From: Schmidtea nova
Lineage: Eukaryota
DNA: 63,824 bases
Assembly: GCA_044892505.1 (NCBI GenBank)
Contig: CM097883.1
Coordinates: forward strand, 105,276,177-105,340,000
Direction of reading: 5' to 3'
Part shown: piece by piece, positions 13,583 to 56,746 of the stretch
How the letters are laid out: each line of letters starts with the position of its first letter
How positions within the stretch are numbered: position 1 is the stretch's first letter
Notes under the pieces: generated by a model
Databases searched by the model: none
Told to the model about the DNA's origin: nothing
What the model saw: the letters and a program-made list of their open reading frames with translations, nothing else
Position numbers and translations under genes: made by a program

Positions 13583-14182
13583 ATGACATATACTACCATT
13601 AATGATATATTTACAGACATGACGGAACCCAAGGGCAGAGATTTCAAGCAAGAGGCGCGAGAACACAAGGCGCGCTCACGAGTCCTGGAGAATCGATTAA
13701 GGCAGCTGAATGAGGAGTATCAGCGGGTTAAAACGACATGGTTTAGCCCAGAGCGGGTTAAGTCCATCCTGCAGGCTAGGTACAGGGCAGAACGAGTAGC
13801 TGAGGAACATGCCAGAGAGATTGCCGCCCTGAAATTAGAGTTGGCGAATTATTTGAAGGTATCGACTCGCGACTTCATTACCGAACAACTACGCCCAGTG
13901 ATCAGAGCTAGCACCTTTAATCGATGGATAGACACGATAGCGGTGACCACGAGCACCCAAACAGAGACCGATACCATCGCAACCACGACGATCGAATCAA
14001 CAATGAAAACTCCAGCCGGTTCGAAACGAACAAAGAGGAGGAATCGCTTAGGAGCGAAAAAGCGCAGGGAAAGACGCGCATATGCAGATCGCCTTGGAAT
14101 CGAAGTAGACTTGCTCAGTGGTCTATCCGAGCAAGAACTACTAAATGTAATACGACCCTCGGTATTGTTGAACTATAAATAA
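13583..14182 (+). CDS. LTR-encoded ORF2 (199 aa, coiled coil + basic NLS-like tract)
   Basis: Heptad-like N-half, KRTKRRNRLGAKKRRERR; identical copy at 39690-40289. Confidence 0.55.
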   Translation: MTYTTINDIFTDMTEPKGRDFKQEAREHKARSRVLENRLRQLNEEYQRVKTTWFSPERVKSILQARYRAERVAEEHAREIAALKLELANYLKVSTRDFITEQLRPVIRASTFNRWIDTIAVTTSTQTETDTIATTTIESTMKTPAGSKRTKRRNRLGAKKRRERRAYADRLGIEVDLLSGLSEQELLNVIRPSVLLNYK

Positions 14183-14379
14183 ATGTATAAAACGAATGAG
14201 TTGACTTGTCTTGTTTGTATGTGGAATGTCTGAAAATGGAATGTAGATAAAACCCGGATTCATTTAAAGCTGCAGATGTCTAAAAAGTACATTACCCTAG
14301 GACACTAGAAAGGAGCATAAGTGGGACCGAAAGAAAGCCACAGACACCTTCTATCGGTAGTGGTGGACCCGTGAATAAA
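14174..14379 (+). promoter_or_regulatory. Candidate LTR TATA boxes (14174, 14186) and poly(A) signal (AATAAA 14374)
   Basis: Order and spacing fit U3/R/U5 near the LTR 3' end; positional inference only, other AATAAA occur near the LTR start. Confidence 0.35.
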
Positions 14380-14573
14380 CAAGGGAATAGTAGCCGAAAG
14401 GTTGCTCACCTGCCTTGTCATTTCACAACGTTGACACAGCACCAACATGATGAGTAGTTAGGGATACATCATGGGTGTCAGCGGGGGAATGTTTTTATGT
14501 TGGCGAGATCACCCTAACATATAAAATCATGAGGATCTCAGTTGTCAATCTAACCAACACACCAGCATAAATT

Positions 14574-14591
14574 TGGGGGCTCAGCCGGGAT
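14574..14591 (+). promoter_or_regulatory. Primer-binding site, tRNA-Pro-like
   Basis: TGGGGGCTCAGCCGGGAT, 16/18 to the classical tRNA-Pro PBS TGGGGGCTCGTCCGGGAT; 6 nt after the LTR end. Confidence 0.8.
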
Positions 14592-15126: not shown

Positions 15127-15585
15127 ATGGAGAACAAAATAAAAGAAATGCAAACGTTTTTCGAAACAAACAACGAAACAGTGGAGACAATAATGAGGAA
15201 GTTAAGACGACTCGAGGTAGAAGGATACCACGAACCGACAAACAACACAGAAAGAGCCGAAATGATGATGAGCATAAGCGAGAATAAGATAACAGTGGAT
15301 ACAACAACGCGATACAAATGGTACAGAGAAAGATTAAACAACCCTGAAATGAATATCGAGTGCCACAGGCTAGAGCAACAGTTAACAACAAAACACGATG
15401 AGTGGATAAGAACGACAACAGAACATACGAGACAATATCTGACGTGTTACATCTGTGAAATAAACAAAATACAGATAATGTTGTTGCCGTGTGGGCATTT
15501 TCGATTCTGTAATGACTGTAAAATAAACGAACGATGTCCTATGTGCAACCTTCCCGTATCCGAGAAAGTAACAGTGTACTTGTAA
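15127..15585 (+). CDS. IAP/MDM2-type C-terminal C3HC4 RING finger protein (accessory gene)
   Basis: CYICEINKIQIMLLPCGHFRFCNDCKINERCPMC...VTVYL at the C-terminus; AATAAA at 15590; no BIR seen. Confidence 0.85.
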   Translation: MENKIKEMQTFFETNNETVETIMRKLRRLEVEGYHEPTNNTERAEMMMSISENKITVDTTTRYKWYRERLNNPEMNIECHRLEQQLTTKHDEWIRTTTEHTRQYLTCYICEINKIQIMLLPCGHFRFCNDCKINERCPMCNLPVSEKVTVYL

Positions 15586-16616
15586 TAGAAATAAAGTTTT
15601 GAACAAGTGCAGTTGTTATTGAAATTATGAGGGTTTAATAATGATTTGGTAAAAATGACCTAAGTAATTATGAGCTACTCACGAGTAGTCCGTTAAGCAC
15701 CCATTGGGGGGAACCAACTGATCAACTTACCCGAGATGTGTAGAAAGGGGCCAATCGCGGATATTGGAAAGCTCTTGTGATGTGACTGATCACCACATCG
15801 TGCATCAGTGGACCAATGCGATCTTTTTATATATTTTGGTTGGGGTGAAAGGTAGGGACAACTCAATGAGGTTTAGGCGCGCGCAGAAAAACTATAAAAA
15901 TAGGATGTTAAACTGATCAGTAAAGAGAGAGATAAAGCAATGAAATGAGTAAGAGGAGTAGAGAAATGTGGTATATGATGAAAGGCACGTAATCAGCTCG
16001 CATAAAGTAAAATCAAGTAGAGAAGTCGACGAATAGATAATAGAATAAAGGGGTATAACAGATGAACCGAGTAAATGGAAAACTCAAGGTTAAAGGAAAT
16101 CCTTGAAAGAAAGGAAATGATAAAAGGGGTCCTAAAGAGAAAGGATTTGCCCATAGTTCTTGAAAGATAGAACTTAACGAAACGCGACAATAGATTCTCC
16201 GAAGAAGCATAAGTGACCACTGGGAGGAACATCCCGAAGCAACACATGCAACCACTGAGAGATGATATTTCGAGTTTCCGTTCGTGAGCATAGGTCTCAT
16301 AGTGAGCATAGGTCTCGTCATAAAACATAACATCCTAGTGAGCGTGGGTCTCGTCATAAAACACAACACCATAGTGAGCATAGTTCTCGTAGTAAGCAGA
16401 GTTCTCATTAATAAACACAAGACCAGCAAACCTAGTCCTCATCAGTGAGCGTAGTTCTCATCAATAAACTTAGCCATCGTAGTGAGCGTAGTTCTCATCA
16501 GGAAACATAATTCCTGTAGTCACCATCAGTGAGCGTAGTTCTCATCGGGGAACATAGTCCCCAGGGCAAAGAGTTTCCATCAGTAAGCAAAACCCTCATA
16601 ACAACCATGTTTTGCC

Positions 16617-16882
16617 AGTGAGCATAGTTCTCGTTAGTGAGCATAGTTCTCGTCAGTGAGCATAGTTCTCGTTAGTGAGCATAGTTCTCGTCAGTGAGCA
16701 TAGTTCTCGTCAGTGAGCATAGTTCTCGTTAGTGAGCATAGTTCTCGTCAGTGAGCATAGTTCTCGTCAGTGAGCATAGTTCTCGTCAGTGAGCATAGTT
16801 CTCGTCATTGAGCATAGTTCTCGTCATTGAGCATAGTTCTCGTTAGTGAGCATAGTTCTCAGCAGTGAGCATAGTTCTCGTT
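16617..16882. repeat. 19-bp tandem repeat, 14 units
   Basis: Unit AGTGAGCATAGTTCTCGT(C/T); degenerate dispersed copies at ~16285-16550. Confidence 0.93.
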
Positions 16883-17206
16883 CGAAATAAAATATTGAGT
16901 AAAAGCCCACGAGAAAGACGACGAAGTGAGGCAGATGAGGACTAAATTACGCATAAAACTATCCGGATAGTGAAGATCAACAAGCGATAATGGAAAGGAA
17001 TAATTGATAATGAGGATAAATGATGAATAGTGAAAATGAATAACGAATAATGAGGAATAAGGGTTGAAAGAAACCGAATTAATAACGAAAGAGTTAAAGG
17101 TGCGCACCTGGGTATTGATAAATGCGAGTAAAGCTGATTATGTGGCCTAATGATGTTAAAGTATGCATACAGAGGAGTAGTAAAGTAAAGTGAGTAAGTG
17201 AAGGGT

Positions 17207-17672
17207 GCCGACTGGAAAACCCAGCAGACCATGAGAATCGATGAGAATAAAATGAAACCGGTTTGTTAAGACAGGTAAAGTGGTAAAGACGCTAGCTGGA
17301 AAACCCAGCAGGTCAATGATAACGATCAAGAAAGATCGAGATAACAAAAGTGAGTAATAATAAAGTGGTGAAATTGAGGACGCTGACTGGAAGACCCAGC
17401 AGGTCAAAAGTGATGATCATCGGAGTAACGAGCAGTTAAAAGTCGGCAGTGAAGAGATAAAGGGTGGATAATAAGAGCGCTGACTGGAAAAACCCAGCAG
17501 GCTAATGAAACGACAATGGAGGTCGAGAATAATGAAGCAGAAGTAAAAGGTGAGATTAAAAGCGCTGACTGGAAAACCCAGCAGGCTAATGAGATAATGA
17601 GTGAAGTTGAGAGAAACAGAGTTCGAGATAAAAGGTGAGATTAAAAGCGCTGACTGGAAAACCCAGCAGGCC
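17207..17672 (+). repeat. Array of six hairpin motifs, period 84-97 nt
   Basis: GCTGACTGGAAAACCCAGCAGG variants at 17207, 17291, 17382, 17479, 17564, 17649. Confidence 0.88.
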
Positions 17673-18546
17673 AACGAGAGATGTCAGTTGAAGTAAAGGT
17701 GAGTAGAGATGAGAATTGAAATGAAGTAGTAAACGTAGTGCGAATAGGAGATAAAGCGAATAGTTGGGAAATAGAGTAGTAGACAGATAAGGGGAGATTT
17801 GAACTCAGAGCCAGAGAAGCCTGAGAAAAGTAAAGGGGATAATAAGAGCGCTGAGCGACAAAGTAATTGGGGAACTGGGGAAAAGTAATTGGTGTATTGG
17901 ATAAAGAATAGATAATTGATACGACTGCATAGATAATTTAAATAGACTTAAAATCAAGGGAAATGGGAAAAATGGGGATCTTCATGAATTATGACTACAC
18001 CCGTGAGAGGGACGAGAAACACGATAACGGGGACGTATCGTGTAAGTGATTATTTGTTTTAAGGAAACAAATCAATCAAGCAATTCAAAGCAATCTAGCA
18101 GTCAGAGCAATCAAAGGAAACAAATCAAAGAAGAAGCAAAGCAAAAGCGGAGTAGAAAATCAGTTGAGAATATAAGCAGTTGAGGAATAGACAAAATTGA
18201 GGGACGAGAAACAAGATCAGGTATAATACCAATCTTAACGGAAGCAGAAAGAAAAGCAGCGAAAAGGACAAGAACAGGTAACAAGCCTAAGCAACAAAAG
18301 AACAAACAAGTAGAGATCAGCGATAATTCGAGTAATAAAGAGAATCAAGAAGAAACCCCAGAAGATCTAGAAGTACAAAACGAAGTAGAGACGATAGACA
18401 GTGAACTAGTCAGGGAAAACAGAACAAGAAGCGAATCAAGAGATAACGAAACAGAGAGTGGTGAAGAAGAAGAGTCGAATTCAGAAACAAGTGGTGAACT
18501 AGAAGTAAAGAAAACTAGTACAGTATTCCAAGATAGTGGAATCGGG

Positions 18547-19600
18547 ATGAGTGATCACAGAGAGGATCTGAGAGAAAAATTCAAGGGCGAACCATTCAAT
18601 GGAGACGCCAGTAGATTGGACACGTTTCTAAAGGAATTTGGCATATTCGTGGATATATGCGGATGGAGTGCAGAAACGTTGGCGAATCGAATCCCGCTAT
18701 ACTTGAAAGATAGCGCATTGGATCTGTATATTGAGAAGAGATCGGGAAGTAATCCACCCAGAACGTGGGAAGCGATCAAGGAGTTCTTCCAACAGACGTT
18801 TGGGATAAACAAAGTGCTGAATGAAGCATTCGATGAGTTCTCAGCAAGAAAACAGAGGAGAAATGAGTCAAATGCGGTGTACGCAAGTGAATTAAGAAAG
18901 TTGGCGAAACTGGCATTCAACAGAGGAAGCCCAGTAGACGAAGAATTGATGACAGCGTTATTCGTACGAGGTCTCAGGAGACCTGACATCAGAGCACAAG
19001 TGGGATGCAAAGGATGTAAAACAGTGGATGAAGCGTTGGAAGCAGCCAACCTATTCGAATTGCATATGGAAATGAACGACATGAGAATTACGGCGGTAAT
19101 GGGAAAAACGACAGAAGATGAAGAACAAGGAAAAAGAAACATGAATCAAAGTATTCCCCATTCGCAGAGATTGTTCAAAGAACCGCCAGCAAGGAAGAAT
19201 AACGGATATATTACGGTGAATACGAATGGAGGAAATAGTTACAATGACAGGCAGAATAGGCAATGTCAGACGTGTGGGAAAAACGGACATTGGCAACAAG
19301 AGTGTTTCCAGAATGTAGCCTGTAAACTGTGTGGACAAAAAGGTCACTCAGAAAATCGATGTTATGGGAAAACGTGTTACACATGTGGAAAAACCGGACA
19401 CATGTCAAGAGACTGTAATCAACAGAGAAGTTGGTCAAACAGTGGAAATAGACAGAATTACGGAAATCGACCAAGCTATGGGAATCAAGGTCAACAACGG
19501 AACAACCCAAATAGCAGTGCAAACGAAGCTAGTATAAAAGAAGCCAAGTTGAGACAGGAGGTATCCAGATTACACGAGATAATCGAAAGCATGGCAAAAG
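18547..19600 (+). other. gag: Gag (capsid + three CCHC zinc knuckles)
   Basis: PFNGDASRLDTFL...F capsid start; CQTCGKNGHWQQEC, CKLCGQKGHSENRC, CYTCGKTGHMSRDC at 19264-19416. Confidence 0.92.
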
Positions 19601-22600
19601 GAAGCCAACAAGCTGCTCAACCAAAGATAAACATGATCCAGCTAATAGAAGCTGAGGCCGAAAGAGAAAATAGAGAAAGCCAACAGAAACATAATCAAGA
19701 ATGGGCTAGAGTACGACGAGAAGAAGAACAAGTCAGGCAACAACGGTTACAACAGTTAAAGAAAGGAAATCCAAGGATCAACATGATGCGAGCAATGATG
19801 GAAGAGAAGCAGCAAGATGAGTCAGACGAATTCGAAGTTAAAGAGAAAAGAAACGAAGAGCAGAGACAAGAAGAAGTGAATCAGGAAGTTCAGGAAGTAG
19901 AAGCCGCAGAGCAGAATCAAAAAGTTGAAGAAATAGAAAAAGAAACGAATCAAGAAGCGGAAGTAAGAATCAAACAAAGAGGAATGTTGGTGATCATGCC
20001 GAATGATCACGTGTGGCGATTCAAATACGATGTAAAAGAAGAAGTGGGAAGATTGTTCAATAAAGTAAATGAGATGATGCCGGGAGTAACGAAACTGCCC
20101 AGAGAAGCATTCCTACAAACAGAGGATTTACCGGAAGTGAAGTTAAAGATGACTGATATATGGGAAGATATGGGAGTAACGGAGACGAAAATAAACGTGA
20201 TGATCATTAGAGAGGTGGAACCGGAGAAAATCCCACCACCAGTGAAACACCAAACTCGGATCAGTCGAATATTCAAAGGGAAAATAAGACGAAGACGGCT
20301 GGAAGAAATAGATGAGTTGGAGAAAAGAATGGGAAAAGCTGAAGTAACAGGAAACGAGAATGAACTAATACAAGAAGTTAGCAAAAACGAAGCGAGACCA
20401 ACCGCGCATATTGGGATGCTGAGACACCCAAGACAAGAGTTGTCAGATGAAGAAGACGACAGCGAAGTTAGCAGTCTGGCAGGAGACATGCTAAAGGAAC
20501 CGGAAAACGAGGATAAAAAGATGGAAGTAGTCGAGACGATAGAAACGATGTCAGTAAAGGAAGAGGAAATTCAGAAGTTGATGGATAATGCGTTAGAAGT
20601 AATCCATAACGAGGAGTATATCGACAAGAAACGATACCGAAAGTTCATACGAGCAGTATGGCAAATGAAGTATAAAGAGTGGTTACAAGAAAGAGAAGTA
20701 AGAGTAATACAGGAGTTCATAGAGAAGTTATTGAAAGAACCACTCAACGAATACGTAATACAAATATGGATAAACGGGTGTTCACCGAGAATCTGGATAA
20801 GGAACCCAATGACGGATGGAATATATCGATGGGTTGAGGACAGATTGGGAAGCTCGTACCAAGACAAATTCATATATTCGGAAAACGGATTGGTGAGAAA
20901 AGGAACGCATATGATAGACACGGGTATCTGGCCAGGAGAAATAACGACGTTATCGATATGCAACACCAAGAAGGAAGAGAACTTACAAGGAATCGTCAAA
21001 GAAGCGAATACGTGTTACGAGATGAGAATAAAACCTCAGTTGCTAGAGGCAAAGGAAAGAATCTTGGCGGAGAATTTGAATACGATGATAGAACAGATCA
21101 TCCAACAAATCAAGAAACATCGAAAGGAATTGACGAAAAGCGAGTATGAGAATTTGAAACAGTGTATCGAGAATATACGAGACACCAGTCAAACGAGACA
21201 CTCAAATTTCAAAACGGATAAGTTAATCGCCAAGATGGGGAAAGAAATGTTTAAACGAGGAGAGGTATCAGATCTGAAGATCACCGTGAGATTACCAAAC
21301 GAAGAGACAAAACAAATTGAGGTAATACCAGATAGTAAAGTGGGAGAAATAGTAGATGTCATCAATGAGACGATATTACAACGAGAACGGGAAGATGAAT
21401 TCGAGGATGACATCGCTATAAAATACAAAGAACATCTACTGAACGAACGTGACGAAAGACGAGCGTATAAAATCGGCATATGGGATAATTATCAGACAAT
21501 ACACGTCATCAGAATGGATGATGTGCCGAGGATAACTACAAAAGATGAAGAAAGGAGAAAGAAACGACAAGAGGACGTTATGCGTAAGTTGAGGCAGATA
21601 GTAGAAATCTATCGGAACTGGCAGATGAAGCCAGAATGGGAGACAATATTGGGAGAATTGGATCTTAACAGACGACGATTGACGCCAGTAGAGAAACAAT
21701 GGGATAACAAAGAGAAATGTTGGAAAGTGAAAAGAGGCGTGTATGAAGAAGATCCGGAAGGAGAAGACAGATATGAACGTAATACGAAACGGATATGTAT
21801 GGTAACAAGGAGGTTATTACCAACGGACTTAGACGGACCAGAAACTGCAGTAATATGGGCAGAATTGGAGAAACAGAAAACGAGTGAATTGATCGAGCTG
21901 ACGAGAGGAAATACTCGGGGAAAAAGACAAACAATAAAAGGCTTAGCACAATTCATAATCTCAAATGGAGAAGACATAACGAACTTGAGAAAAGTAGCTA
22001 AAGCGATAGCAGAATACAAGAGAGTTAACGAGTGGTGTCCAGAGCAACTAGACGATGTAATAAAAAAGTGGAGAAACAAAGAGTTTGCAGAGGAAACGCC
22101 ACAGAAAATACATTTGAGGATAATGTATCCGAATCAGAGAAAAGAAGAGTTTTGGGTGATGCTAACAGAGAAAGTGAAAAGTGTTAAAGAGAAACTGATG
22201 TACGAACTACCATTCCACCTGCAACATCAAGGACGATCGTTGGATAATAATTTAGAAATCTGGCTGACACCAGTACAATTGGATCTAATGAATACGCTAA
22301 CAGTGGCACAAATAGTGGGTCAACCACTGAAGTTTAAAGAGGAAAAGAAAACGAAAGGGAGCCTGAGTACACCAAGTCCGATGAAGTCAACAATGACCCC
22401 AGGAACAAGTTCAGGACAAGCAAGGACAACACCAATAAAAACGAGAGAGAGAACACCGCCAGAAGCGTATGACGTCGATGAGATACTAACAGATAGTGAT
22501 GAGGCGATAGAAGAACTAACGAAGTTAACTCAAAAACCAACGGCGAATATTTTCGACAGAATAATAGAGATGCCAATAACGTCACCAGCAGAAATCGACG

Positions 22601-25600
22601 ATCAAGGAGTGGAACAGGAGGTAGTCATAGAAATGGTAAACGATTCAGAAGACGAGCAAGAACAACCACAGTTTACCCAAGAAATGGAAAGATGGTTAGA
22701 ACAGCGAGCGAACGAAGGAAGAGACGTTACAGAGGAAACCGGAAGAGCAACGAGATTCGTAGAAACCGGAACTGGAATGGAAAAACGACCAAGAGGAAGA
22801 CCAAAGATAGATCCAGCAACAGCAATTCCAAAGACAAGGGAAGAAAGGAGACAAGAGCAATGGGAGATTTGCTTGAAGAAACTGGATAAAATCGCAGAGA
22901 TCAGAGGCAAAGAAGAGAATCAAGTTTGTCAAGGAGAAGAATGGCTCACCAAAACGATAATGGATGTGTTAGCGATAATTGATCCAGAATTAAAGAATCT
23001 GTGGCGGATAAACGAACCCAGTACAAAGGCAAGGATGCTACACAATGCGATAGCACCAATTATGCCGGAATTGATAAAAGCGAAAACAAAATCGAATCAT
23101 CTAGATTGGCAAGGAACCACGATGTTAATAAAAAGGCTACTTAACGGAGCAGAGACGGACAGCAAATATCTAGTAGCAATCTCGTATACGATATACAATT
23201 TGTTAACGCTAAGCCGAGGAAGCCCGAAGTCAAGTCCGATGGGAAGACATATTAAAAATACGGCGATGATTATCGAGAAAGAAATTGAACCATATATCCT
23301 CAGGAAAGGAGGATGGGAAAAGTTCATAAAAGAGAACCAGACAAAAGAAGGGTCTAACGTGATGAGAAAGAAACTTGAAGGAGTATTGAGAGAAATGGAG
23401 AATAGACAAACAATGCAAGGAAACGGAAGATCGACGTTGAATTTAAACTCGATAATCATGATGATGTTAGTATGGTTGTTAAGCACGGAAGGTGTAACAA
23501 CATTTGAGGTATTTGATTGTGATCAAATGAAGTTAGGAGAAAAGTACTCATTGAGAGGTACGGAGCAGTGCAAAGATGCAACTCCAGTAGAGTTGAAAGA
23601 GATTAAAAAAGAACAATGGTACCACGTGTATCAAGAGGCAGAACTAATAAAGACAATGGTGAATGAATGCAAAGTGCAAAAGACGAGATTCGCATTCTAT
23701 TGTGGGAGAGGACATTATTCAGCAATTGTCATGCCAGGAACAGAAAGAGAACCAATCGTGTTGCAAGGGGAAGACTGCGAAGCATTATTTAAACATGGAG
23801 AAGTGACAACGAGAGATAAAATCAAGATAAAAGGAAAGCCAGGAATGATGTTGCAGCAGACGTATTATGTAGCAGGACGGATTACGGGAGGAGAAGGATA
23901 TTGTCAAGGAGAAACCTACCCAATATTCGGAGTACCTGCAACCAACTTAGTAGTGATGGATACGTACATAGTCGAATTGAAAAGCTACGAAGCATTCTTC
24001 GAACCGACCACAGGAGAAATGAAAACGTTATCCATGTGTAAAATTGACAGAAGTATGTGTCAAACGGGAATGTCAACATTGGTGTACAAACCAAAGGTGA
24101 ACGAATGTCAATTACAACTGCTACAAGGAGCAAAGTTCGACGAAATCCAAGGAAATACGTTCCAGGAAGAGGACGATGATGACAAAGCTAGAGCAAAACA
24201 TCTCAAAGAAGCTTTAGAAAACAAAAGACAATTGAGACCAGATCATAGAGAAAAACGAATAGAGATGAGAGCCACACCAACAGTGTTGATAACCACAAAT
24301 CAGGATGTGGGAATGAGATTCATAAAAAGGAAAGCAACCCTTAAGTGCAGTACAACAGTATACGAAACAAACTATCCAGGAATATACGTGTCAAAGCAAG
24401 AAGTGCCGAATGCGAAACCCAAGATCGACACAATGGATATCAAGCTACACTTGTATGTGAATAATAAAATGGATTTCTTATTCCATAGAGGACAAGCCTC
24501 ATTACAAAAAGTGTACTATGATCTGATAAACAACGATTGTATACTGAACCGGGAAATATTGAAGACAAAGTTGGCCGTAGCGATTACGAATCCAGATAGC
24601 GCGATGCCGTTATTACCACTGAGGGAAGGACATTTCGGAAGAGTGGTTGGAGAGGCAATGTACGTATACATTTGCGAAAAGACACACGCATCGCTAGCAG
24701 CAACAACGCAGTTGAAACCTGGACAATGTACAAATGAATTAGAAATCGATTATAAAGGAAAAGTACGATACGTTCAACCGGTGACGAGAATCATCAATCC
24801 ACCAGGGTTCGAACCAAATCCATTCAACTGTAGTAACGCGTACGGACCGCTTTATCAGAAGCCAGATGGCAAATGGGTTATGTTCCCAGGAAGAACCGAA
24901 GTATTAGCACCAAGAGAATTTGAGCTAATGCAGTTGTCAAAAGATAGACAGTTCAGCGACGTAGATGTCTCAAACAACGGAATCTATAGTCCAAAGGATT
25001 TAGAAGCAGCAAGGCAGAATATATTATTCCCGGCAAGAAGAGAAGCATTACTGTCAAATATCGTAACGATAACGGGAGGAACGAATTATCGAGAAGGACC
25101 GAATTACGAACTGTTGTTGTCACCGGCACATTTCAAGAAAGCCACAGAAAATATGATGAAGGCAATGTGGGGAAGATTCCTGATATTTGGACAAATGATG
25201 GCTGGAATACTGGGTGTTATATTGATAATACAAATCGTCAGAGTGATAATAACGCAAATGTTAGCGTGTTTCGACATCTACAAGAGAGAAAAGAAAGTGA
25301 ATTGGAAAATGGTAGTAGGGTTTTTACCATTCCTTGCGAAAACGATGGTGTTGCACGGACACTCAAAAGACATACATCGAATAAAGAGGTTATTGAAGAT
25401 ACTTGCAAAAATGAAAGGAACAAACGAAGATGTCGGAAGGAAATTCAAAAAGATAATGCAAGACGAGCAAGCAAGGCGACAACTCAAGAAAGAAAGGAAA
25501 GGATTATGGGAAAGAGTGAGGGGATACCGAACGCAAGATGATTCAAGTAATGATGATGACGATGACGATCAAGGAGGACAAGCGAATATAAACCAGATTC

Positions 25601-28600
25601 CACAGTATAACGAAAAGAGTGCAGTTGAGAATTGGAGATACAGCGCTCCACCTCAGTCAATGTACAACGAACCGATATACAAAGCGAAGCCGAATATGAT
25701 GCAGATGATGCCGATGACAAGTATATACCCGATAATTCCAGAAGGATGCAAAGTAAAACGAGGTGGAAGTGTAAATTCGTTGGAAGACACGCACACGATA
25801 GCGGTTATGTCCACAAATATGGGACCGATTTTAACAACAACCGTAGAAATAAACGGAAGAGAAATTGAAGCAATGATCGATACAGGCGCGAATATTTCGG
25901 CAATCGACATCAACTATATACCAGAGAAAAACCAAGGAGAAATTGAGAAAACGAATGTACATGTAATCGCGTGCAGTCAAGAGACAGTAGAAGTAGCCGG
26001 AAGATGGTTCGTAAGAATTAAGCATCGAGGTGCAGAGATCAACACGTACATCGCTGTAATACCATCGCTGAGTGTACCATGTATTATTGGAACTGACCTG
26101 ATGCCAGACCTGTTCAAGGAAATCGTAATCGATCTAGGAGCCATGAAGCTAAAAGATAGAACAGGAAAAATCTGCAGAATGAAAGTTAAAGTGGCAAGTG
26201 CGGAACAAATAGTAGTGCCAGCGAGGCACGAAATGATGTGCTATGTCAAGATCGATTCGACAATAAAGGGAGATATGGTATTCGAACCAAGTAAGAAGTT
26301 CGAAGCAAAGAAAGAATTACCAATGGCAAGAGAATTGGTTACGATAAATCAACAAGGAGAAATACCGATCAATCTGGTGAACTTCGACGAAGAGGACAAG
26401 ATAATATATGAGAATGAGAGATTGGGTAAATTGACACCCATGTCCGAAATCGAAATACCAGACAAGAACGAGAAAAGCAAAGACGAATTACCATGGAAAA
26501 TCGACAGTGTGTTGTTAGACGAACGACAAAAAGAACAGTTACAGAAACTGTTGATGGAATATAAAGATATATTCGCAGCATCAGATTTAGATCTGGGAAC
26601 ATGCGATGTAACATTACATACGATACCGTTGACGGACGAAACGCCGATCGCATTAAGACCATACAAACTGGCAGAAGCTCAAAAAGCAGTGGCAGAAGAA
26701 GAGGTACAAAAGATGTTAGATGCAGAGGTCATCGAACCTAGTTGCTCACCCTGGCAATTCCCAGTGGTGATGGTGAAAAAGAAGGATGGAACTCAGAGAT
26801 TCTGTATCGATTACAGACGGTTGAACGCAGTTACGAAAAGAGATACGTACCCACTGCCAGACATAAACGAAATGTTGTTGACGTTACAAGGAGCAGCTTA
26901 TTTCACGTCACTGGATTTAAAAAGTGGATATTGGCAGATCAAAATGAAAGACGAGGATAAAGAGAAGACAGCATTTACAATCGGACGAGATCTGTACCAA
27001 TTCAAGAAAATGCCGTTTGGGTTAACAAACGCGCCAGCATCATTCCAGAGATGCATGAATTTCGTAACACATGGCATAAAACAATGCATGGTGTACATCG
27101 ACGATCTATTGATCTACTCCGCAACATTCGAAGATCACTTACAAGACATCAGAAATGTGTTCGTGAAATTAAGGCAATGGAAACTGAAATTGAAGCCGTC
27201 AAAGTGCGATTGGGCAAAAGAGAAAGTGACTTTTTTAGGTCACATTGTATCGGCAAAAGGAAAAGAACCAGATCCAAGGAATATCGAAAAAGTCAAAGAA
27301 TGTCCACCACCAAAGACAGTGACTCAAATACAAGAATTTTTAGGATTGTGTGGATATTATCGAAAGTTCATCAAGGACTACGCAGGAATATCAAAGCCAA
27401 TGCAAGAATTGGTAAGACAAGATGTGTCGTTTGTATGGGGAGAAGAGCAACAAGCAGCATTTGAAACATTACGAGATAAGCTGATTACAGCACCAATATT
27501 GGTCCATCCAGACTTTAAGAAGCCATTTTTGCTGGCAACAGATGCAAGTGGATACGCAGCAGGAGCAGTACTAGGCCAATTTGACGAAGAAGGCAAGGAA
27601 AGAGTAATTGGGTACTATAGTCGAACGTTCAGAAAACATGAAAGGAATTACTCAGTCACAGAAAGAGAAGCCTATGCGATAATATTGGCAATCAAGCATT
27701 TCAAGTACCTACTGTGGGGTCATGAAATATATATCACGACGGATCATCAACCGCTAGTATGGTTAGGTCAACATAAAGAATCATCAAGTAGATTGATGCG
27801 TTGGGCGATGCAGTTACAAGAATACTCGCCATTCATAAAGTTTAAAGCAGGAAAAGCAAATGCAAATGCGGATTGCATGTCAAGGTTTACATTCCCAGAA
27901 TTGGTGAACCTAAACGCTCTGAAAATATGTGCATTAATAGCGGAGGATTTGGATTTCAGCGAACTAAGGAAAGATCAACTCGAAGACGAGGAGTTGGGAT
28001 TGATCAGCAAGTATTTGAAAGAAAGGGAAATAGAAATATTCGGCAAGAGCCAAACGTTGCGCGAACATATGCAGAAATATCAGCACCGATACGTGATGGA
28101 AAAAGGATGGTTATTGATACAGGATGGAGAACGGAGATTGATGTGCTTACCTGCGAATAGGCGAAAGGAAATCATGACTCAATATCATGACGGAAAATTA
28201 GGCGGACATATGTCAACAAAAAAGACAATCGGGAGACTGAGACAAAAGTACTTTTGGCCAACCATGGAAGATGATGTAAAAGAATGGATAAAGAACTGCT
28301 TAACCTGTGCAACAAGAAAGAACGTCGGAACAAAGTGGAAAACACCACTAAAACCTATGCCAATACCTGCAGAACCAATGGCGACGATAGCAATGGATGT
28401 AGTTGGACCATTGCCGGAAAGTTTAAAGGGGAATCAATATATATTAGTAGTCACGGACTATCTAACAAAGTTCCCAGAAGCATACGCAATACCGGATCAA
28501 AAGGCAAAAACAGTCGCGAGAATATTGGTGGAAGAGATATGCTGCAGATACGGAACACCAAAGAAAATCCTAACGGATCAAGGAACAAATTTCATGAGTG

Positions 28601-31600
28601 AAATATTGGACGAAGTTACGAATTACTTCAGAATTGCGAAATTACGAACATCCCCATACCATCCACAAACGAACGGTCAAACGGAAAGATTCAATGGAAC
28701 ATTAATACGCATGTTGTCAAATTACGTCAGTAAACATCAGACTGACTGGGACGAGTATATCAACTTGTGTTTAATGGCATATAGAATGTCAATACATGCA
28801 GCAACAAAGCTAAGTCCATTCCAACTGATGTACGGAAGAGATTGCAACTTACCGATCGATTTAGAATACCAACCACCATTATCACAGTACATGGAGGTTG
28901 ACGATTACGTTACAAAGTTCAAAGAAAGAATGCAAGAAATCTGGAAAACGGCGGAACTGAACATCAAGTTCTATCAAGAGAGTTACAAGGATCTGCATGA
29001 TCAGAAAAAGAATGTGAAAGCACATGATTTAAAAGTTGGAGATTGGGTGATAATCGAAACACCAGAGATAATACCCGGTACGGTCAAGAAACTCCAACGA
29101 CCAGGCAAAGGGCCATATGAAATCACAACAGTAAACGAAAATAATGTGCGAGTACGATTGGTGAACAATCCATTGGTAAGACCAATATACGTGAATGCAT
29201 GTCGATGCAGGAAAATACCAAAGACAGCAACTCTATCACCAGAGAAACGGGTAATGACAAGATCACAGACGGCGAGAATCAGTATGTTGCGAGTACAACA
29301 AAAGCCGCAAACAAGTCTAGAGGACAACCGAAGGGAGATAATAGACATCAAAGAACTGGCAAGGAAAACCAGAGAAATTATACCGGAATGGAGGTGGTGG
29401 CACGATTTCAATATACTGTCAGAAGTTCGAAAGAATGTAATGGAGTATGCAAAAGACAGAACAGCACATCCAATAACAAGGACGCTGCTAGAGGAGATCC
29501 CTCAGACATTGAATCTACAAGACAAAGACGGTAATACCGCGTTGCACAATGCAATCAAGCACAGTGGAAACGAAAAAGTGAAGGAAATTGTAGGGATGAT
29601 ACTCGAAGGTGGAGGAGAAATTGACAAAGTGAATTGGGAAGGAATTACTCCACTTATGATGATGACGATTCATGGAAGAAAAGATGAAATAATCAAGCTA
29701 TTCGGAAACACCAGATCGAATTGGTTGACAAAAGATAAAGAGGGACGAACATTCTTGAATCATGCAATTGATAGAGCGAATCACCGAATACTGAAGTATA
29801 TCACGGAAAATGCCACGTGGGAAATCGATGAACTAACTAGAGGATCGATCATGAAACAAGCAATCGGAGTAAGAAATAGTAAAACCTGGAGAATATTGCT
29901 AAAGTGGAAACGACCAGAAGGAGATTCGTGGGTCATAGATTGTAATGAAGTGTTCATAAGGGGAGAAAATGCGTTACTGAAACATCTATTAGAAGTAACA
30001 TACGATCCAAAAACACTTGCAGTGTTGATAGCGAGAGATACGCTACGGGTTAGTGAGAACCCAAGAGAATACAAGCTGGAAGACAGAAAGAAAGAATTAT
30101 TCGGATTAATCAAGAAATGGTGTGATAAACAATGGAATCCGGATATGAGCTTCGAACATTTCTATGACATCCAAAAGCAGCACAAAGAAATAAGCAAGCG
30201 ATATAAAGAGCTGGTGGAAGCATTGAAATATGGACAATTCTTCAGACAAGCAGTGTATCAAGACCAACGAATGAAACAGATGCAAACGCGAATAAGAAGC
30301 AAAGCAGTGTTGTTCAATGCAAAAGCGGAATATCAAGAGAGATTAGACGCAATCATAGCAAAAGCACAGGAAAGATTATCGGAATTCAAGGAGAATAAAA
30401 ACTCGTTGGAAATACTAGGAGCAATTACAGAGAAAGTACACAGATACGCACAAGGAGATTATAACGAGAGTGACATAGAAACGATCAAAAATCAAATGCC
30501 AGTGGCATTCCTATTATCAAAGGATGGGAGATTGCCGATACACTGGGCATTACGTCGAAAGAAAGAAAACGAAGTGCTAGAAATAACGAAAGCAATGGTC
30601 AAATGCGAAGCGGACATGAATACGGTTGATGATAACGGAGATACAATCATGATAATCGCAGCAAGAAAGAAGACGAGCCTGAAAGTACTAAACGAGTTAT
30701 ACGAAGCAGGAGCAAAAATCGAAGGGAAAAATGGAAAGAATAATTCCATCATAGATATCGCAATACAGTGGAACAACTTCGAGATGATCAAGTTCATAAA
30801 GTCCATCAAGAGACAAGAGGACATGGAATATCTGGCAAATAACGTAAAGAAGTTCAGTCTGACAGTAATGATACACGACATAGAGAAAACAAGAGCATTA
30901 CTAACATGGGTGAATCCGATCACCAAGGAACCGGCATTCAAGATCAATGACCATATAGAACAGAATCAGAATTGGTGTATCAGAAGCGCGTTGTTAAGAC
31001 ACAAAAAGCCAGAGATAGTAGAAGAATTCTTAAAGAGAAGAGATTTGAAGTTCACGAACAATCCAAAGGAACCCGAACGAACGGGAAGATGGAAAGACTT
31101 GTTCAGAAAATATGTGAATGAATGGACAAATGCCAAAGAAGCGATCAAGCAAAGTAGACTAGAAGACAGGGAACCATCCAAGGAGATGGAAATACGTGAA
31201 TTCGAGTCTAGCACACTCGCGGTTCAAGCGTATGAAAGATTGATTGAAGAAATTAATGTCGAGGACGACATTTTCAAAGGACCAGGGGGTGGTTACAGAG
31301 ATTTCGACGACAAAAGCAACAACGAAGAGAACAACGAAGACAATGACAACAAAAGAACGGAGGATAATGAAAAAGGAAGACAAGAAGAACCGAAGCCAAC
31401 GAGAAACGACAAGAAAAGAGAAGCAGAAGAACAAGAAAACAGTGGAACAAAAGACGAACATGCGAACTATGGAAAACGAACAGGAAGTCTACTTTTGAGA
31501 CCAGAAATGTTGTGTATCGCGATATTGTTAACAATCATCGGACAAGGAGAAGCCAAGAAACAATACGTCACGCTGGAAATAATCAGAGGAAACGAAGTAT

Positions 31601-33429
31601 ACGAAAGAATATGCTGGAAAGAGAACATGAGGAAAAACGATACGCTGAAGTGTATATTGTCAGATCTGAAGCGAGACGTCATCCAAATCAAGGGATTGGA
31701 AAAAGAAAAGTCATACATAATATGCGCAATAAAGCAGAGAGGAGAACCAAAAGCACCTCAAGTAACTGAATGTCAATTATATAAAGCAACAGAAGCGCTG
31801 AAAATACAGAAATGGATTGGAAAAAGAAGCGAAGAGACAACGAGAAGAACAGAAGTGGAACCAGAGAAAGGGAAGAATCAAACGGAAGCAGAAGAGGGAA
31901 TCAGAAACCGAACAGAGAAAGAAAGAATAACCAAAAATTCAGCGGGCAAATTAACATTCCAACCGGAATTGATATGTGTAGCATTAATACTAATCCTCAT
32001 TAAGAGAATCATGGAGGACATAGATATCAGCGTGATGACGTTGGTAAATATCCAAGACCAACGAACAACGAACGGAAGATGTTGGGGACGAAACAATGAA
32101 GTAATTGGAATCAGTGAAACAAGAGAAAGTCGAGAGGCAGAGACAAATGAGGAAATCGAGATAACTGAAATGGAAACAGAGAAAACATGTGAACTATGTC
32201 TCATGGAAAAAGCAACAAACGGAAACAGACCAGGAACAAGCGAGTGTAAAGTGTTCCAAGCAAAGGAGATAATTGAGTTCCCAAAAAGAAAGAAACAAGA
32301 TCAAGAAATGATTGCGAATGAAGTAGTAACCGTGGAGATAAAAAACATTGGTCGGAGAACAATTGGGATGTGTTGGAGAAAATACATCGGAGTATCGACC
32401 AGTCACGTACTACCGCAATGCAGAACGAGAGAACGAGGAATTCCGTTTCAACTAAATGGATTCGAAGTCGGACAAGCTTACGAAATTTGCATAATCCGAA
32501 GAATAAGAGAAATAATACAAAGAAGCCTGGAGTGCAAACTGTACAAGACGCCAGAGCAAATTAACGGAACAAGAACGATTGAAATGGGAAGAAGTCGACG
32601 GAGGAAAAGAAAGTCAAGAAGAACCACGACAACCAACAGTCAAGGAACTCAACAGACAACAGAAGGGACGTCAACAAAAAACGAACCGGAATCAACGACT
32701 CTGATAATATGGAAGATCCATAAAAAGGTCCTAGAAATCTGTTGGACATTAATGCCAAACAGTATGAGAGAGTCTCCACGAAACTGTCAAAAGACATCAA
32801 ATGACAAAAGGGAAATAATCGAGGTAGAAATGAGGAGGTTGAAAACAAACGCAGAATACGAAGTGTGTGCAATCGAAGAAGTAGACGCACAAGGAAATCA
32901 ACAAGAAAGGTGCGAAACCTATTACACGCCAAGGAACATAACGATAAAAGGGGGAACCCGCAAGTTAGAATTCCGAGAATTGAGTCAGAAAAGAGAACAA
33001 ACAGAGACGGAGGAAATACTACAAAATCAACAAGAAAGATGGGAACCCGAGAAAGTGATCGAAGAAGTCAGACAGAGACAACAACAATATGAACAATGGG
33101 AAGCAGAATGGAAAGGTCAATATGGCGTGATGATAAACCAAAGTGAAACTCCGAAGAGGAGCGTTGGGAAAACAATAATGGGATTAATCAGCATGGGAGT
33201 ATTCATAGGGTGTATACCGCTGATAACGATCATGATAGTATGTTGGAGATATGGCATGAGAAATAAGACCATAGCAGTAAAATGGCCAGACGTAAAGGTC
33301 ACGAACTACAACATAAAACTACCAAAAGGAGTACGAGAGGAACTGAAAAGACGATCAAAACACGAAGAGATGTGGGTACAGATCGAGGACGAAGAACTGT
33401 ACGAAGGAAAACCAGTGATAGTTGTATAG
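18547..33429 (+). CDS. 4960-aa Gag-Ubl-Bcl2-Env-Pol-Ank-FN3 polyprotein
   Basis: Single open frame; motifs listed in the sub-features. Confidence 0.96.
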   Translation: MSDHREDLREKFKGEPFNGDASRLDTFLKEFGIFVDICGWSAETLANRIPLYLKDSALDLYIEKRSGSNPPRTWEAIKEFFQQTFGINKVLNEAFDEFSARKQRRNESNAVYASELRKLAKLAFNRGSPVDEELMTALFVRGLRRPDIRAQVGCKGCKTVDEALEAANLFELHMEMNDMRITAVMGKTTEDEEQGKRNMNQSIPHSQRLFKEPPARKNNGYITVNTNGGNSYNDRQNRQCQTCGKNGHWQQECFQNVACKLCGQKGHSENRCYGKTCYTCGKTGHMSRDCNQQRSWSNSGNRQNYGNRPSYGNQGQQRNNPNSSANEASIKEAKLRQEVSRLHEIIESMAKGSQQAAQPKINMIQLIEAEAERENRESQQKHNQEWARVRREEEQVRQQRLQQLKKGNPRINMMRAMMEEKQQDESDEFEVKEKRNEEQRQEEVNQEVQEVEAAEQNQKVEEIEKETNQEAEVRIKQRGMLVIMPNDHVWRFKYDVKEEVGRLFNKVNEMMPGVTKLPREAFLQTEDLPEVKLKMTDIWEDMGVTETKINVMIIREVEPEKIPPPVKHQTRISRIFKGKIRRRRLEEIDELEKRMGKAEVTGNENELIQEVSKNEARPTAHIGMLRHPRQELSDEEDDSEVSSLAGDMLKEPENEDKKMEVVETIETMSVKEEEIQKLMDNALEVIHNEEYIDKKRYRKFIRAVWQMKYKEWLQEREVRVIQEFIEKLLKEPLNEYVIQIWINGCSPRIWIRNPMTDGIYRWVEDRLGSSYQDKFIYSENGLVRKGTHMIDTGIWPGEITTLSICNTKKEENLQGIVKEANTCYEMRIKPQLLEAKERILAENLNTMIEQIIQQIKKHRKELTKSEYENLKQCIENIRDTSQTRHSNFKTDKLIAKMGKEMFKRGEVSDLKITVRLPNEETKQIEVIPDSKVGEIVDVINETILQREREDEFEDDIAIKYKEHLLNERDERRAYKIGIWDNYQTIHVIRMDDVPRITTKDEERRKKRQEDVMRKLRQIVEIYRNWQMKPEWETILGELDLNRRRLTPVEKQWDNKEKCWKVKRGVYEEDPEGEDRYERNTKRICMVTRRLLPTDLDGPETAVIWAELEKQKTSELIELTRGNTRGKRQTIKGLAQFIISNGEDITNLRKVAKAIAEYKRVNEWCPEQLDDVIKKWRNKEFAEETPQKIHLRIMYPNQRKEEFWVMLTEKVKSVKEKLMYELPFHLQHQGRSLDNNLEIWLTPVQLDLMNTLTVAQIVGQPLKFKEEKKTKGSLSTPSPMKSTMTPGTSSGQARTTPIKTRERTPPEAYDVDEILTDSDEAIEELTKLTQKPTANIFDRIIEMPITSPAEIDDQGVEQEVVIEMVNDSEDEQEQPQFTQEMERWLEQRANEGRDVTEETGRATRFVETGTGMEKRPRGRPKIDPATAIPKTREERRQEQWEICLKKLDKIAEIRGKEENQVCQGEEWLTKTIMDVLAIIDPELKNLWRINEPSTKARMLHNAIAPIMPELIKAKTKSNHLDWQGTTMLIKRLLNGAETDSKYLVAISYTIYNLLTLSRGSPKSSPMGRHIKNTAMIIEKEIEPYILRKGGWEKFIKENQTKEGSNVMRKKLEGVLREMENRQTMQGNGRSTLNLNSIIMMMLVWLLSTEGVTTFEVFDCDQMKLGEKYSLRGTEQCKDATPVELKEIKKEQWYHVYQEAELIKTMVNECKVQKTRFAFYCGRGHYSAIVMPGTEREPIVLQGEDCEALFKHGEVTTRDKIKIKGKPGMMLQQTYYVAGRITGGEGYCQGETYPIFGVPATNLVVMDTYIVELKSYEAFFEPTTGEMKTLSMCKIDRSMCQTGMSTLVYKPKVNECQLQLLQGAKFDEIQGNTFQEEDDDDKARAKHLKEALENKRQLRPDHREKRIEMRATPTVLITTNQDVGMRFIKRKATLKCSTTVYETNYPGIYVSKQEVPNAKPKIDTMDIKLHLYVNNKMDFLFHRGQASLQKVYYDLINNDCILNREILKTKLAVAITNPDSAMPLLPLREGHFGRVVGEAMYVYICEKTHASLAATTQLKPGQCTNELEIDYKGKVRYVQPVTRIINPPGFEPNPFNCSNAYGPLYQKPDGKWVMFPGRTEVLAPREFELMQLSKDRQFSDVDVSNNGIYSPKDLEAARQNILFPARREALLSNIVTITGGTNYREGPNYELLLSPAHFKKATENMMKAMWGRFLIFGQMMAGILGVILIIQIVRVIITQMLACFDIYKREKKVNWKMVVGFLPFLAKTMVLHGHSKDIHRIKRLLKILAKMKGTNEDVGRKFKKIMQDEQARRQLKKERKGLWERVRGYRTQDDSSNDDDDDDQGGQANINQIPQYNEKSAVENWRYSAPPQSMYNEPIYKAKPNMMQMMPMTSIYPIIPEGCKVKRGGSVNSLEDTHTIAVMSTNMGPILTTTVEINGREIEAMIDTGANISAIDINYIPEKNQGEIEKTNVHVIACSQETVEVAGRWFVRIKHRGAEINTYIAVIPSLSVPCIIGTDLMPDLFKEIVIDLGAMKLKDRTGKICRMKVKVASAEQIVVPARHEMMCYVKIDSTIKGDMVFEPSKKFEAKKELPMARELVTINQQGEIPINLVNFDEEDKIIYENERLGKLTPMSEIEIPDKNEKSKDELPWKIDSVLLDERQKEQLQKLLMEYKDIFAASDLDLGTCDVTLHTIPLTDETPIALRPYKLAEAQKAVAEEEVQKMLDAEVIEPSCSPWQFPVVMVKKKDGTQRFCIDYRRLNAVTKRDTYPLPDINEMLLTLQGAAYFTSLDLKSGYWQIKMKDEDKEKTAFTIGRDLYQFKKMPFGLTNAPASFQRCMNFVTHGIKQCMVYIDDLLIYSATFEDHLQDIRNVFVKLRQWKLKLKPSKCDWAKEKVTFLGHIVSAKGKEPDPRNIEKVKECPPPKTVTQIQEFLGLCGYYRKFIKDYAGISKPMQELVRQDVSFVWGEEQQAAFETLRDKLITAPILVHPDFKKPFLLATDASGYAAGAVLGQFDEEGKERVIGYYSRTFRKHERNYSVTEREAYAIILAIKHFKYLLWGHEIYITTDHQPLVWLGQHKESSSRLMRWAMQLQEYSPFIKFKAGKANANADCMSRFTFPELVNLNALKICALIAEDLDFSELRKDQLEDEELGLISKYLKEREIEIFGKSQTLREHMQKYQHRYVMEKGWLLIQDGERRLMCLPANRRKEIMTQYHDGKLGGHMSTKKTIGRLRQKYFWPTMEDDVKEWIKNCLTCATRKNVGTKWKTPLKPMPIPAEPMATIAMDVVGPLPESLKGNQYILVVTDYLTKFPEAYAIPDQKAKTVARILVEEICCRYGTPKKILTDQGTNFMSEILDEVTNYFRIAKLRTSPYHPQTNGQTERFNGTLIRMLSNYVSKHQTDWDEYINLCLMAYRMSIHAATKLSPFQLMYGRDCNLPIDLEYQPPLSQYMEVDDYVTKFKERMQEIWKTAELNIKFYQESYKDLHDQKKNVKAHDLKVGDWVIIETPEIIPGTVKKLQRPGKGPYEITTVNENNVRVRLVNNPLVRPIYVNACRCRKIPKTATLSPEKRVMTRSQTARISMLRVQQKPQTSLEDNRREIIDIKELARKTREIIPEWRWWHDFNILSEVRKNVMEYAKDRTAHPITRTLLEEIPQTLNLQDKDGNTALHNAIKHSGNEKVKEIVGMILEGGGEIDKVNWEGITPLMMMTIHGRKDEIIKLFGNTRSNWLTKDKEGRTFLNHAIDRANHRILKYITENATWEIDELTRGSIMKQAIGVRNSKTWRILLKWKRPEGDSWVIDCNEVFIRGENALLKHLLEVTYDPKTLAVLIARDTLRVSENPREYKLEDRKKELFGLIKKWCDKQWNPDMSFEHFYDIQKQHKEISKRYKELVEALKYGQFFRQAVYQDQRMKQMQTRIRSKAVLFNAKAEYQERLDAIIAKAQERLSEFKENKNSLEILGAITEKVHRYAQGDYNESDIETIKNQMPVAFLLSKDGRLPIHWALRRKKENEVLEITKAMVKCEADMNTVDDNGDTIMIIAARKKTSLKVLNELYEAGAKIEGKNGKNNSIIDIAIQWNNFEMIKFIKSIKRQEDMEYLANNVKKFSLTVMIHDIEKTRALLTWVNPITKEPAFKINDHIEQNQNWCIRSALLRHKKPEIVEEFLKRRDLKFTNNPKEPERTGRWKDLFRKYVNEWTNAKEAIKQSRLEDREPSKEMEIREFESSTLAVQAYERLIEEINVEDDIFKGPGGGYRDFDDKSNNEENNEDNDNKRTEDNEKGRQEEPKPTRNDKKREAEEQENSGTKDEHANYGKRTGSLLLRPEMLCIAILLTIIGQGEAKKQYVTLEIIRGNEVYERICWKENMRKNDTLKCILSDLKRDVIQIKGLEKEKSYIICAIKQRGEPKAPQVTECQLYKATEALKIQKWIGKRSEETTRRTEVEPEKGKNQTEAEEGIRNRTEKERITKNSAGKLTFQPELICVALILILIKRIMEDIDISVMTLVNIQDQRTTNGRCWGRNNEVIGISETRESREAETNEEIEITEMETEKTCELCLMEKATNGNRPGTSECKVFQAKEIIEFPKRKKQDQEMIANEVVTVEIKNIGRRTIGMCWRKYIGVSTSHVLPQCRTRERGIPFQLNGFEVGQAYEICIIRRIREIIQRSLECKLYKTPEQINGTRTIEMGRSRRRKRKSRRTTTTNSQGTQQTTEGTSTKNEPESTTLIIWKIHKKVLEICWTLMPNSMRESPRNCQKTSNDKREIIEVEMRRLKTNAEYEVCAIEEVDAQGNQQERCETYYTPRNITIKGGTRKLEFRELSQKREQTETEEILQNQQERWEPEKVIEEVRQRQQQYEQWEAEWKGQYGVMINQSETPKRSVGKTIMGLISMGVFIGCIPLITIMIVCWRYGMRNKTIAVKWPDVKVTNYNIKLPKGVREELKRRSKHEEMWVQIEDEELYEGKPVIVV
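20752..22320 (+). other. Three ubiquitin-like domains (20752-20958, 21271-21516, 22105-22320)
   Basis: By-eye alignment to ubiquitin, e.g. LKITVRLPNEETKQIEVIPDSKVGEIVDVI...YQTIHVI and IHLRIMYPNQRKEEFWV...KVKSVKEKL...HQGRSLDN...NTLTV; none ends in GG; first copy weakest. Confidence 0.6.
22940..23340 (+). other. Bcl-2-like domain
   Basis: EPYILRKGGWEKFIKE resembles BH2 (WIQ.NGGWD.FV); preceding helical pattern and spacing fit BH1-BH2, but NWGR is not conserved. Confidence 0.65.
23443..25400 (+). other. env: Envelope/fusion glycoprotein (chuvirus-glycoprotein-like, class III type)
   Basis: Internal signal peptide IIMMMLVWLLSTEG, Cys-rich ectodomain starting FEVFDC, TM at 25171-25272; collinear homolog at 58900-60790 (-). 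Confidence 0.8.
25820..26170 (+). other. Aspartic protease
   Basis: EAMIDTGANISAI (DTG at 25879); CIIGTDLM. Confidence 0.93.
26590..27880 (+). other. pol: Reverse transcriptase and RNase H
   Basis: SPWQFPVVMVKKKDG..RFCIDYRRLN, MPFGLTNAPASFQ, VYIDD (27094); LATDASG, TERE, TDHQPL, NADCMSR. Confidence 0.97.
28000..29220 (+). other. Integrase (HHCC, DDE, GPY)
   Basis: HDGKLGGH...CLTC; AMDVVGP; LTDQGTNF; NGQTERFN; GKGPYEI. Confidence 0.96.
29500..30810 (+). other. Ankyrin repeats, two blocks (~29500-29880, ~30510-30810)
   Basis: QDKDGNTALHNAI, VNWEGITPLMM, DKEGRTFLNHAI; KDGRLPIHWAL, DDNGDTIMIIAA, GKNNSIIDIAI. Confidence 0.9.
31483..33429 (+). other. C-terminal membrane module: internal signal-like segments, four FN3-like repeats, TM (33175-33246), cytoplasmic tail
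   Basis: Repeated CW...L....Y(E/I)(I/V)C...EC..Y.T at ~31560-31790, 32020-32260, 32320-32550, 32690-32930; hydrophobic EMLCIAILLTIIGQGEA and ELICVALILILIK. Confidence 0.65.
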
Positions 33430-36655: not shown

Positions 36656-36674
36656 AAAGAGGCGAAAAATCCAA

Positions 36675-39542: not shown

Positions 39543-39689
39543 TTGATACCGAGAAAGAATGATTGTCTTAGATATTGAAATATATGTATTGGCGTGTGAC
39601 GGTCTTGTTTTGTTTTTGGGTGCATGAGAACAACCTAAGGATAGGGTAGAGTTGTGTAATGACGATAGGGTGACCGAAAGATCAGACAC

Positions 39690-40672: not shown

Positions 40673-40674
<2 letters not shown>

Positions 40675-55200: not shown

Positions 55201-55294
55201 TGATCTTAAGTTGTATTTATGTGGTTTTATTATTGGTAGTTCATCTTCTGCAAGTTTACATCGATTGACGTGCACAACAATTGGATCCTCGTTC

Positions 55295-56667: not shown

Positions 56668-56746
<79 letters not shown>

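Follow-up and report, generated by a model that had tools for sequence, protein, structure and literature searches.

Giant gypsy elements of planarians, named Burro or GYPSM1 (Jurka 2007 and Grohme 2018, as cited in PMC6431247), are the described systems closest to the locus reported here. In a 2019 review they are >30 kb long, with ORFs of 4,873 and 5,140 aa, and carry ankyrin, MATH_TRAF and BIR domains (PMC6431247, Arkhipova and Yushenova 2019). A BCL2-like motif in Burro was noted by Grohme et al. 2018, and env lies in frame between BCL2 and PR; in other gypsy elements the env genes are separate ORFs (PMC6431247). For Burro elements, the combination of a Bcl-2-like motif and an in-frame env after it is thus already known. 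The same review called experimental confirmation of the apoptosis-related cargo worthwhile (PMC6431247), and we found no functional test of this cargo in the literature searched. BURRO1 is transcribed on loss of PIWI silencing (PMC8532177). RNAi against BURRO1 brought no improvement of the smedwi-2 phenotype (PMC8532177), a result with little bearing on the Bcl-2-like domain.

Three other groups of proteins are relevant. Cellular Bcl-2 proteins have the motif order BH4-BH3-BH1-BH2, a GGW in BH2 and a mitochondrial transmembrane region, and for Trichoplax Bcl-2L4, which has lost the BH1 Gly, a functional groove has been argued to be unlikely (PMC8998228). Viral Bcl-2 proteins without recognisable BH motifs still bind BH3 peptides and block apoptosis (PMC11209288); F1L inhibits apoptosis despite having no obvious BH domains (PMC2836074), and adintoviruses carry Bcl2 (PMC8502044). 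Lastly, the flavivirus capsid and the HCV and pestivirus core are polyprotein products that are tethered to a membrane by the following signal, and the anchor is then removed by a viral protease or by signal peptide peptidase (PMC7601889).

A Burro-type element and its cargo

The window, i.e. the whole 63,824-nt stretch of Schmidtea nova DNA that was analysed, contains a Ty3/gypsy LTR element of 29,380 bp (29.4 kb; 11295-40674) whose layout is that of Burro elements in planarians. It is inserted in a (TA)n tract, and its GC content of ~40% contrasts with 27-33% in most of the flanking DNA. Comparison of the LTRs places the 5ʹ LTR at 11295-14567 and the 3ʹ LTR at 37402-40674 (both + strand; 3,273 bp), with 3271 of 3273 bases the same (99.9%). 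Each 3.3-kb LTR also includes two ORFs (227 and 199 aa; 12752-14182 and 38859-40289, + strand) that matched nothing in a Pfam scan. Adjoining the LTR end is a putative primer-binding site (14574-14591, + strand), which we take to be tRNA-Pro-like. The leader that precedes gag is long, with a 19-bp tandem array (16559-16938, + strand) and longer repeated units (~17200-17680, + strand).

An open frame at 18184-33429, with its first ATG at 18547, encodes a single polyprotein of 4,960 aa (18547-33429, + strand; ORF list and Pfam). Its parts are Gag, three CCHC knuckles, a spacer with ubiquitin-like segments, the Bcl-2-like domain, Env, PR, RT, RNase H, IN, ankyrins and a C-terminal membrane-protein region. 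Pfam gives the order Retrotrans_gag (E 3e-6), zf-CCHC, a Monjiviricetes-type fusion glycoprotein (PF24664 Monjiviricetes_fusion, E 4.4e-74), aspartic protease, RT (RVT_1, E 6e-37), RNase H, integrase (rve, E 1e-11) and ankyrins (Ank_2, E 5e-19). The two ubiquitin-like-looking segments lie upstream of the Bcl-2-like domain (21244-21500 and 22069-22320, + strand); Pfam matched the first weakly (RA_2, E 0.08) and the second not at all, and they are consistent with the SUMO-like motif of published Burro elements. After the ankyrins (31495-33240, + strand) come two similar signal-like stretches (aa 4317 and 4475), repeated Cys-containing beta-type modules that look FN3-like by eye and are blank in Pfam, and a final transmembrane segment. 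This C-terminal region is apparently released from the polyprotein as a second membrane protein.

Outside the polyprotein, an accessory ORF upstream of gag (15127-15585, + strand) ends in a RING finger (Pfam zf-C3HC4_3, E 5e-9). Downstream lies a TRAF-like gene (33993-35405, + strand), in which a RING and zf-TRAF part (33993-34940; zf-TRAF, E 4e-5) is separated by an in-frame stop from a MATH part (34941-35405; TRAF-mep_MATH, E 4e-26). The LTRs are nonetheless 99.9% identical; this stop is possibly a fresh lesion or a site of read-through. Two more accessory ORFs at 35495-37199 (+ strand), one of 386 aa that is charged and coiled-coil-like, the other of 228 aa with signal-like and transmembrane-like stretches, had no convincing family in the Pfam scan.

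The element resembles Burro in its size of ~30 kb, its long LTRs, its one ORF of ~5,000 aa, its AT-rich host (the planarian genome is >70% A/T; PMC11410931) and its ankyrin and MATH_TRAF cargo. It also shares the retrotrans_gag with three CCHC motifs, the BCL2-like motif and an in-frame env akin to mononegaviral fusion proteins, followed by PR-RT-RH-IN. This likeness rests on architecture, rather than on sequence identity or an RT phylogeny with Burro-1 to -4. One difference concerns MATH/TRAF, which in this element belongs to an accessory gene that lies downstream and is interrupted by an in-frame stop; it is published as part of the polyprotein in Burro1 and as lying upstream in D. tigrina. 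A Pfam scan of 17 proteins gave no BIR family match, only the RING ORF, although a diverged BIR could escape such a scan and the published Burro elements differ in their cargo.

A second, decayed element occupies ~54900-60900 (− strand) of the window. It has the same Env-PR-RT-IN order, with 31-38% protein identity to the intact element, but is interrupted by frameshifts and stops. Ankyrins are absent from the part seen, and the integrase is followed by a signal and one Cys-containing beta-type module (54877-55404, − strand). The linker, signal and Env of this element share a reading frame with an adjoining sequence that we presume to be Maverick/Polinton capsid-like and for which Pfam is blank (60117-61382 and 62812-63792, − strand), beside an rve integrase ORF. 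The junction corresponds to the end of the Bcl-2-like domain of the intact element, and the second element starts just past it. The window contains no second copy of the Bcl-2-like domain.

Sequence motifs and fold of the Bcl-2-like domain

The Bcl-2-like domain (aa 1463-1598; 22933-23340, + strand) lies in frame between the Gag/spacer region and Env, at the position of the published Burro BCL2 motif. As the initial annotation had proposed, a BH2-like motif ends an all-helical region just before the Env signal: a pattern search placed a BH2-type motif with GGW at 23293-23328 (+ strand), within YILRKGGWEKFIKE (23293-23334; aa 1583-1596 of ORF 18547-33429). The pattern is PROSITE-style. Its relaxed form has one match in the polyprotein, with 0.0006 expected and none in 2000 shuffles, figures to be read with the fact that the first position was widened from W to W/Y/F only after the sequence had been inspected; that position is Y here, and the strict W form has no match in the polyprotein. 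Plain GGWxxF occurred in 8 of 2000 shuffles.

The other hallmarks of the family have changed. At the presumed BH1 position (23158-23184, + strand; model residues 87-90, by the structural offset of 49-50 to Bcl-xL), DSKY stands in place of NWGR and is followed by LVAI. No NWGR-like motif occurs anywhere in the 4,960-aa ORF, and the BH3 consensus LxxxGD is absent from aa 1441-1620. Because the BH1 NWGR reads DSKY and there is no BH3 consensus, the sequence makes a canonical BH3 groove doubtful.

Sequence searches did not recover the family. The HMM check suggested in the initial annotation came back negative, with no Bcl-2 family match by Pfam for 2 + 5 constructs covering the domain, and queries with the domain gave no Bcl-2 match in NCBIfam or PDB sequences either; a 5.8-billion-protein database returned no match at all. 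Two matches in a 1.84-billion representative database were both to repeat proteins and were dropped as artefacts. Since no usable relatives, and thus no alignment, were found, both AlphaFold2 models are single-sequence folds. Both are essentially all-helical (model 1, 9 helices in 167 aa, pLDDT 50; model 2, 7 helices in 138 aa, pLDDT 59).

We compared these models with 350,542 PDB chains using Foldseek, having named the Bcl-2 family before the search. For model 1, the family took the first 16 places and 34 of the 42 matches listed (33 assigned by title and one, with a partial title, presumably of the family), with a best E of 0.27 and a TM-score of ~0.39. For model 2, it accounted for 24 of the 46 matches listed, with a best rank of 2 (E 1.4), behind Fis1. 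The top family match was Bcl-xL in both cases (rank 1 and rank 2, respectively); most of the family rows are redundant Bcl-xL structures and so count as one observation. No match for either model reached an E of 0.001, and TM-scores were 0.25-0.40.

VIA superposed model 1 residues 66-148 on Bcl-xL 116-197 (Z 6.8, rmsd 3.4, 80 aligned, 19% identity), with unrelated helical folds tied or higher. The offset of 49-50 puts the GGW of model 1 (137-139) on what we take to be the GGW of Bcl-xL. For model 2, Bcl-w gave Z 5.5, and the Bcl-2-family rows had 4-11% identity. Wide VIA searches with both models returned no Bcl-2 entry among the best 50, a cut-off below which the family may still lie. In BFVD no match was significant, with an adintovirus Bcl2 at rank 44 (E 4.4), and ESM Atlas gave no Bcl-2 match (best 0.75 and 0.88, low recognition, with a lead to DUF6532).

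By itself, the fold evidence from these models is suggestive only. Nonetheless, the BH2 motif, the helix order, the Foldseek ranking and the published Burro annotation together make it very probable that the domain is a Bcl-2 homologue; this much of the initial annotation stands, although the consensus residues of BH1 and BH3 are missing. The domain shares with cellular Bcl-xL, Bcl-w and BAX the helix order, the BH2 GGW, a hydrophobic segment downstream and, in a low-confidence model, the superposition of helices 4-8. It differs from cellular Bcl-2-fold proteins in having no NWGR, no BH3 consensus and a longer linker.

The Env signal peptide as a possible tether

The hydrophobic stretch of the Env signal starts at aa 1631 (nt 23437), 35 aa past the BH2-like motif, which is the spacing initially described. 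The predicted signal peptide (23437-23502, + strand) consists of an h-region (23437-23481) with a strong core of 10 aa and a 7-aa c-region. Small residues at −3 and −1, and the register with the second, decayed element, point to aa 1653 (nt 23503) as the first residue after signal-peptidase cleavage, which would leave a 7-aa luminal stub. The Env ectodomain that follows (23503-25251, + strand) has 14 Cys and one REKR furin-type motif, and ends in a transmembrane helix (25195-25251). Between the domain and the signal, an amphipathic linker helix (23362-23403, + strand) has a hydrophobic moment greater than that of 98% of 14-aa windows in the ORF; a similar helix is present in the second element.

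Excision of Env from the polyprotein would yield a product with the order domain, linker and signal tail, and tethering of the Bcl-2-like domain to the membrane by the Env signal peptide, the dual use proposed in the initial annotation, is plausible by analogy with the viral systems above. Moreover, the presence of two other signal-like stretches, at aa 4317 and 4475, suggests repeated use of internal signals in this polyprotein; if such signals are routine, whatever precedes one inherits it. A protease-site-like motif, which was fitted after the sites had been seen, occurs 9 times in the polyprotein compared with 0.8 expected, several times at domain junctions. None of the nine lies between BH2 and the Env signal, and two weaker candidates are found at the N-terminal edge of the domain (aa 1449 and 1460).

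What kind of anchor would this be? Judged by its sequence, the hydrophobic segment looks like a signal peptide rather than a typical tail anchor, and its predicted destination is the ER, not mitochondria. Its best 19-aa mean hydropathy is 1.52, compared with 2.55 for the Env transmembrane helix and 2.54 for the C-terminal transmembrane segment. With a hydrophobic core of only ~10 aa and entry into the ER, a weak or transient ER tether seems likelier than a true Bcl-2 tail anchor: the tail anchor of cellular Bcl-2 is mitochondrial, whereas the segment here is the predicted cleavable ER signal of another protein. Signal peptide peptidase could then release the tethered domain, as it does the HCV core. 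The parallel with the HCV/pestivirus core and the flavivirus capsid is that a cytosolic polyprotein product ends in the signal of the next envelope protein. In those viruses, however, the tethered product is the capsid, freed by signal peptide peptidase or a viral protease, and no homology is implied. We did not find the idea that the Env signal anchors the Bcl-2-like domain in the literature searched; the supplements of Grohme 2018, which may hold domain boundaries or transmembrane predictions, were outside its scope.

Possible functions and their significance

Our preferred explanation, held tentatively at a little under an even chance, is that the element encodes a diverged Bcl-2-fold domain that modulates host cell death and that the Env signal tethers to the ER as it is made, in a way that is probably weak or transient. 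The Bcl-2-like module of a Burro-type element would have originated as a Bcl-2-fold domain of an animal host, since diverged. The internal Env signal would target the ribosome to the ER, such that everything upstream, including the Bcl-2-like domain, stays cytosolic, and signal peptidase would free Env at ~aa 1652/1653. The upstream product would retain the linker and signal, and thus an ER tether like that of the HCV core or flavivirus capsid. A core of 10 aa would probably make this a weak or transient tether, perhaps cleaved by signal peptide peptidase and perhaps held in part by the amphipathic linker helix. On its N-terminal side, the product would be trimmed by the protease of the element. 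By analogy with viral Bcl-2 proteins, the domain probably works like a divergent member of that group, although the two motifs sought as marks of a canonical member, NWGR and the BH3 consensus, were not found in it. It would damp host cell death at the ER, the site of Env synthesis, through a surface that we propose to be non-canonical because NWGR is lost. The TRAF-like, RING and ankyrin modules of the element may be its partners in host control.

An alternative, which we consider unlikely, is that the Bcl-2 fold has been reused outside apoptosis, e.g. for an adaptor that acts with the TRAF-like, RING and ankyrin modules to inhibit signalling of the innate or NF-kB type. Poxvirus A46, A52, B14 and K7 are Bcl-2 folds that block signalling of this kind. 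Loss of the BH1 and BH3 consensus and the presence of TRAF/MATH, RING and ankyrin co-cargo are consistent with such a role. BH2, however, is retained, and in the structure comparisons it is cellular Bcl-xL, Bcl-w and BAX that come closest, not poxviral proteins.

It is less likely still that the domain is a stably tail-anchored, canonical pro-survival Bcl-2 protein that binds BH3 peptides in its groove. The BH2 GGW, the order of domain, linker and hydrophobic tail, and a linker free of protease-like sites are all as this would predict or allow. Against it, the tail is short and weakly hydrophobic, and lies 41 aa from the GGW; in human Bcl-2 proteins this distance is ~16-25 aa. Furthermore, the Gly and Arg positions of BH1 are changed (DSKY), a loss comparable to that on which the Trichoplax Bcl-2L4 groove argument rests, and insertion here would be into the ER, whereas the transmembrane regions of cellular members target mitochondria (PMC8998228).

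There is a small chance that Env is made mainly from its own RNA or start codon, with an ordinary N-terminal signal whose adjacency to the Bcl-2-like domain has little to do with anchoring. In each of the two elements, a Met precedes the h-region by 8-9 aa, and that of the intact element, at 23413, begins a textbook n-h-c signal from which a separately started Env may arise; env is also a separate ORF in other gypsy elements (PMC6431247). Yet no strong plus-strand splice acceptor was found at 19167-24488, compared with 4 in the whole element, and Pol lies downstream of Env within the same ORF, so that full-length translation must cross the signal anyway. Equally improbable is a vestigial or unrelated helical spacer with a chance GGW motif. 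The blank sequence searches, the lack of a significant fold match and the absence of Bcl-2 from the best 50 of either wide VIA search speak for it; the rarity of the relaxed motif in shuffles, the Foldseek ranking of a family named beforehand and the independent published annotation of Burro at the same position (PMC6431247) speak against it.

With the Bcl-2-like domain and its position before env already in print, there is little new in the observation as such; our additions are concrete domain boundaries, the loss of NWGR, and the prediction of ER tethering and release by signal peptide peptidase. Viral Bcl-2 proteins (F1L, DPV022 and KsBcl-2) and the Bcl2 of adintoviruses or Polintons are likewise Bcl-2-like genes in mobile parasites, some without recognisable BH motifs. 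Those of dsDNA viruses are stand-alone genes, whereas the domain described here is part of a retroelement polyprotein. We regard as doubtful the full proposal of a working death inhibitor encoded by a retroelement, with a left-over Env signal peptide as its sole membrane anchor, a non-NWGR surface, and a place in a TRAF/RING/ankyrin/Bcl-2 kit. If the left-over signal does serve as the anchor, production of each Env molecule from the polyprotein would leave one Bcl-2-fold protein behind on the ER, and the making of the envelope would be coupled to host-cell protection. A working, signal-tethered retroelement Bcl-2 would carry viral Bcl-2 mimicry beyond DNA viruses into retroelements, and would help to account for the success of a 30-kb element in its host.
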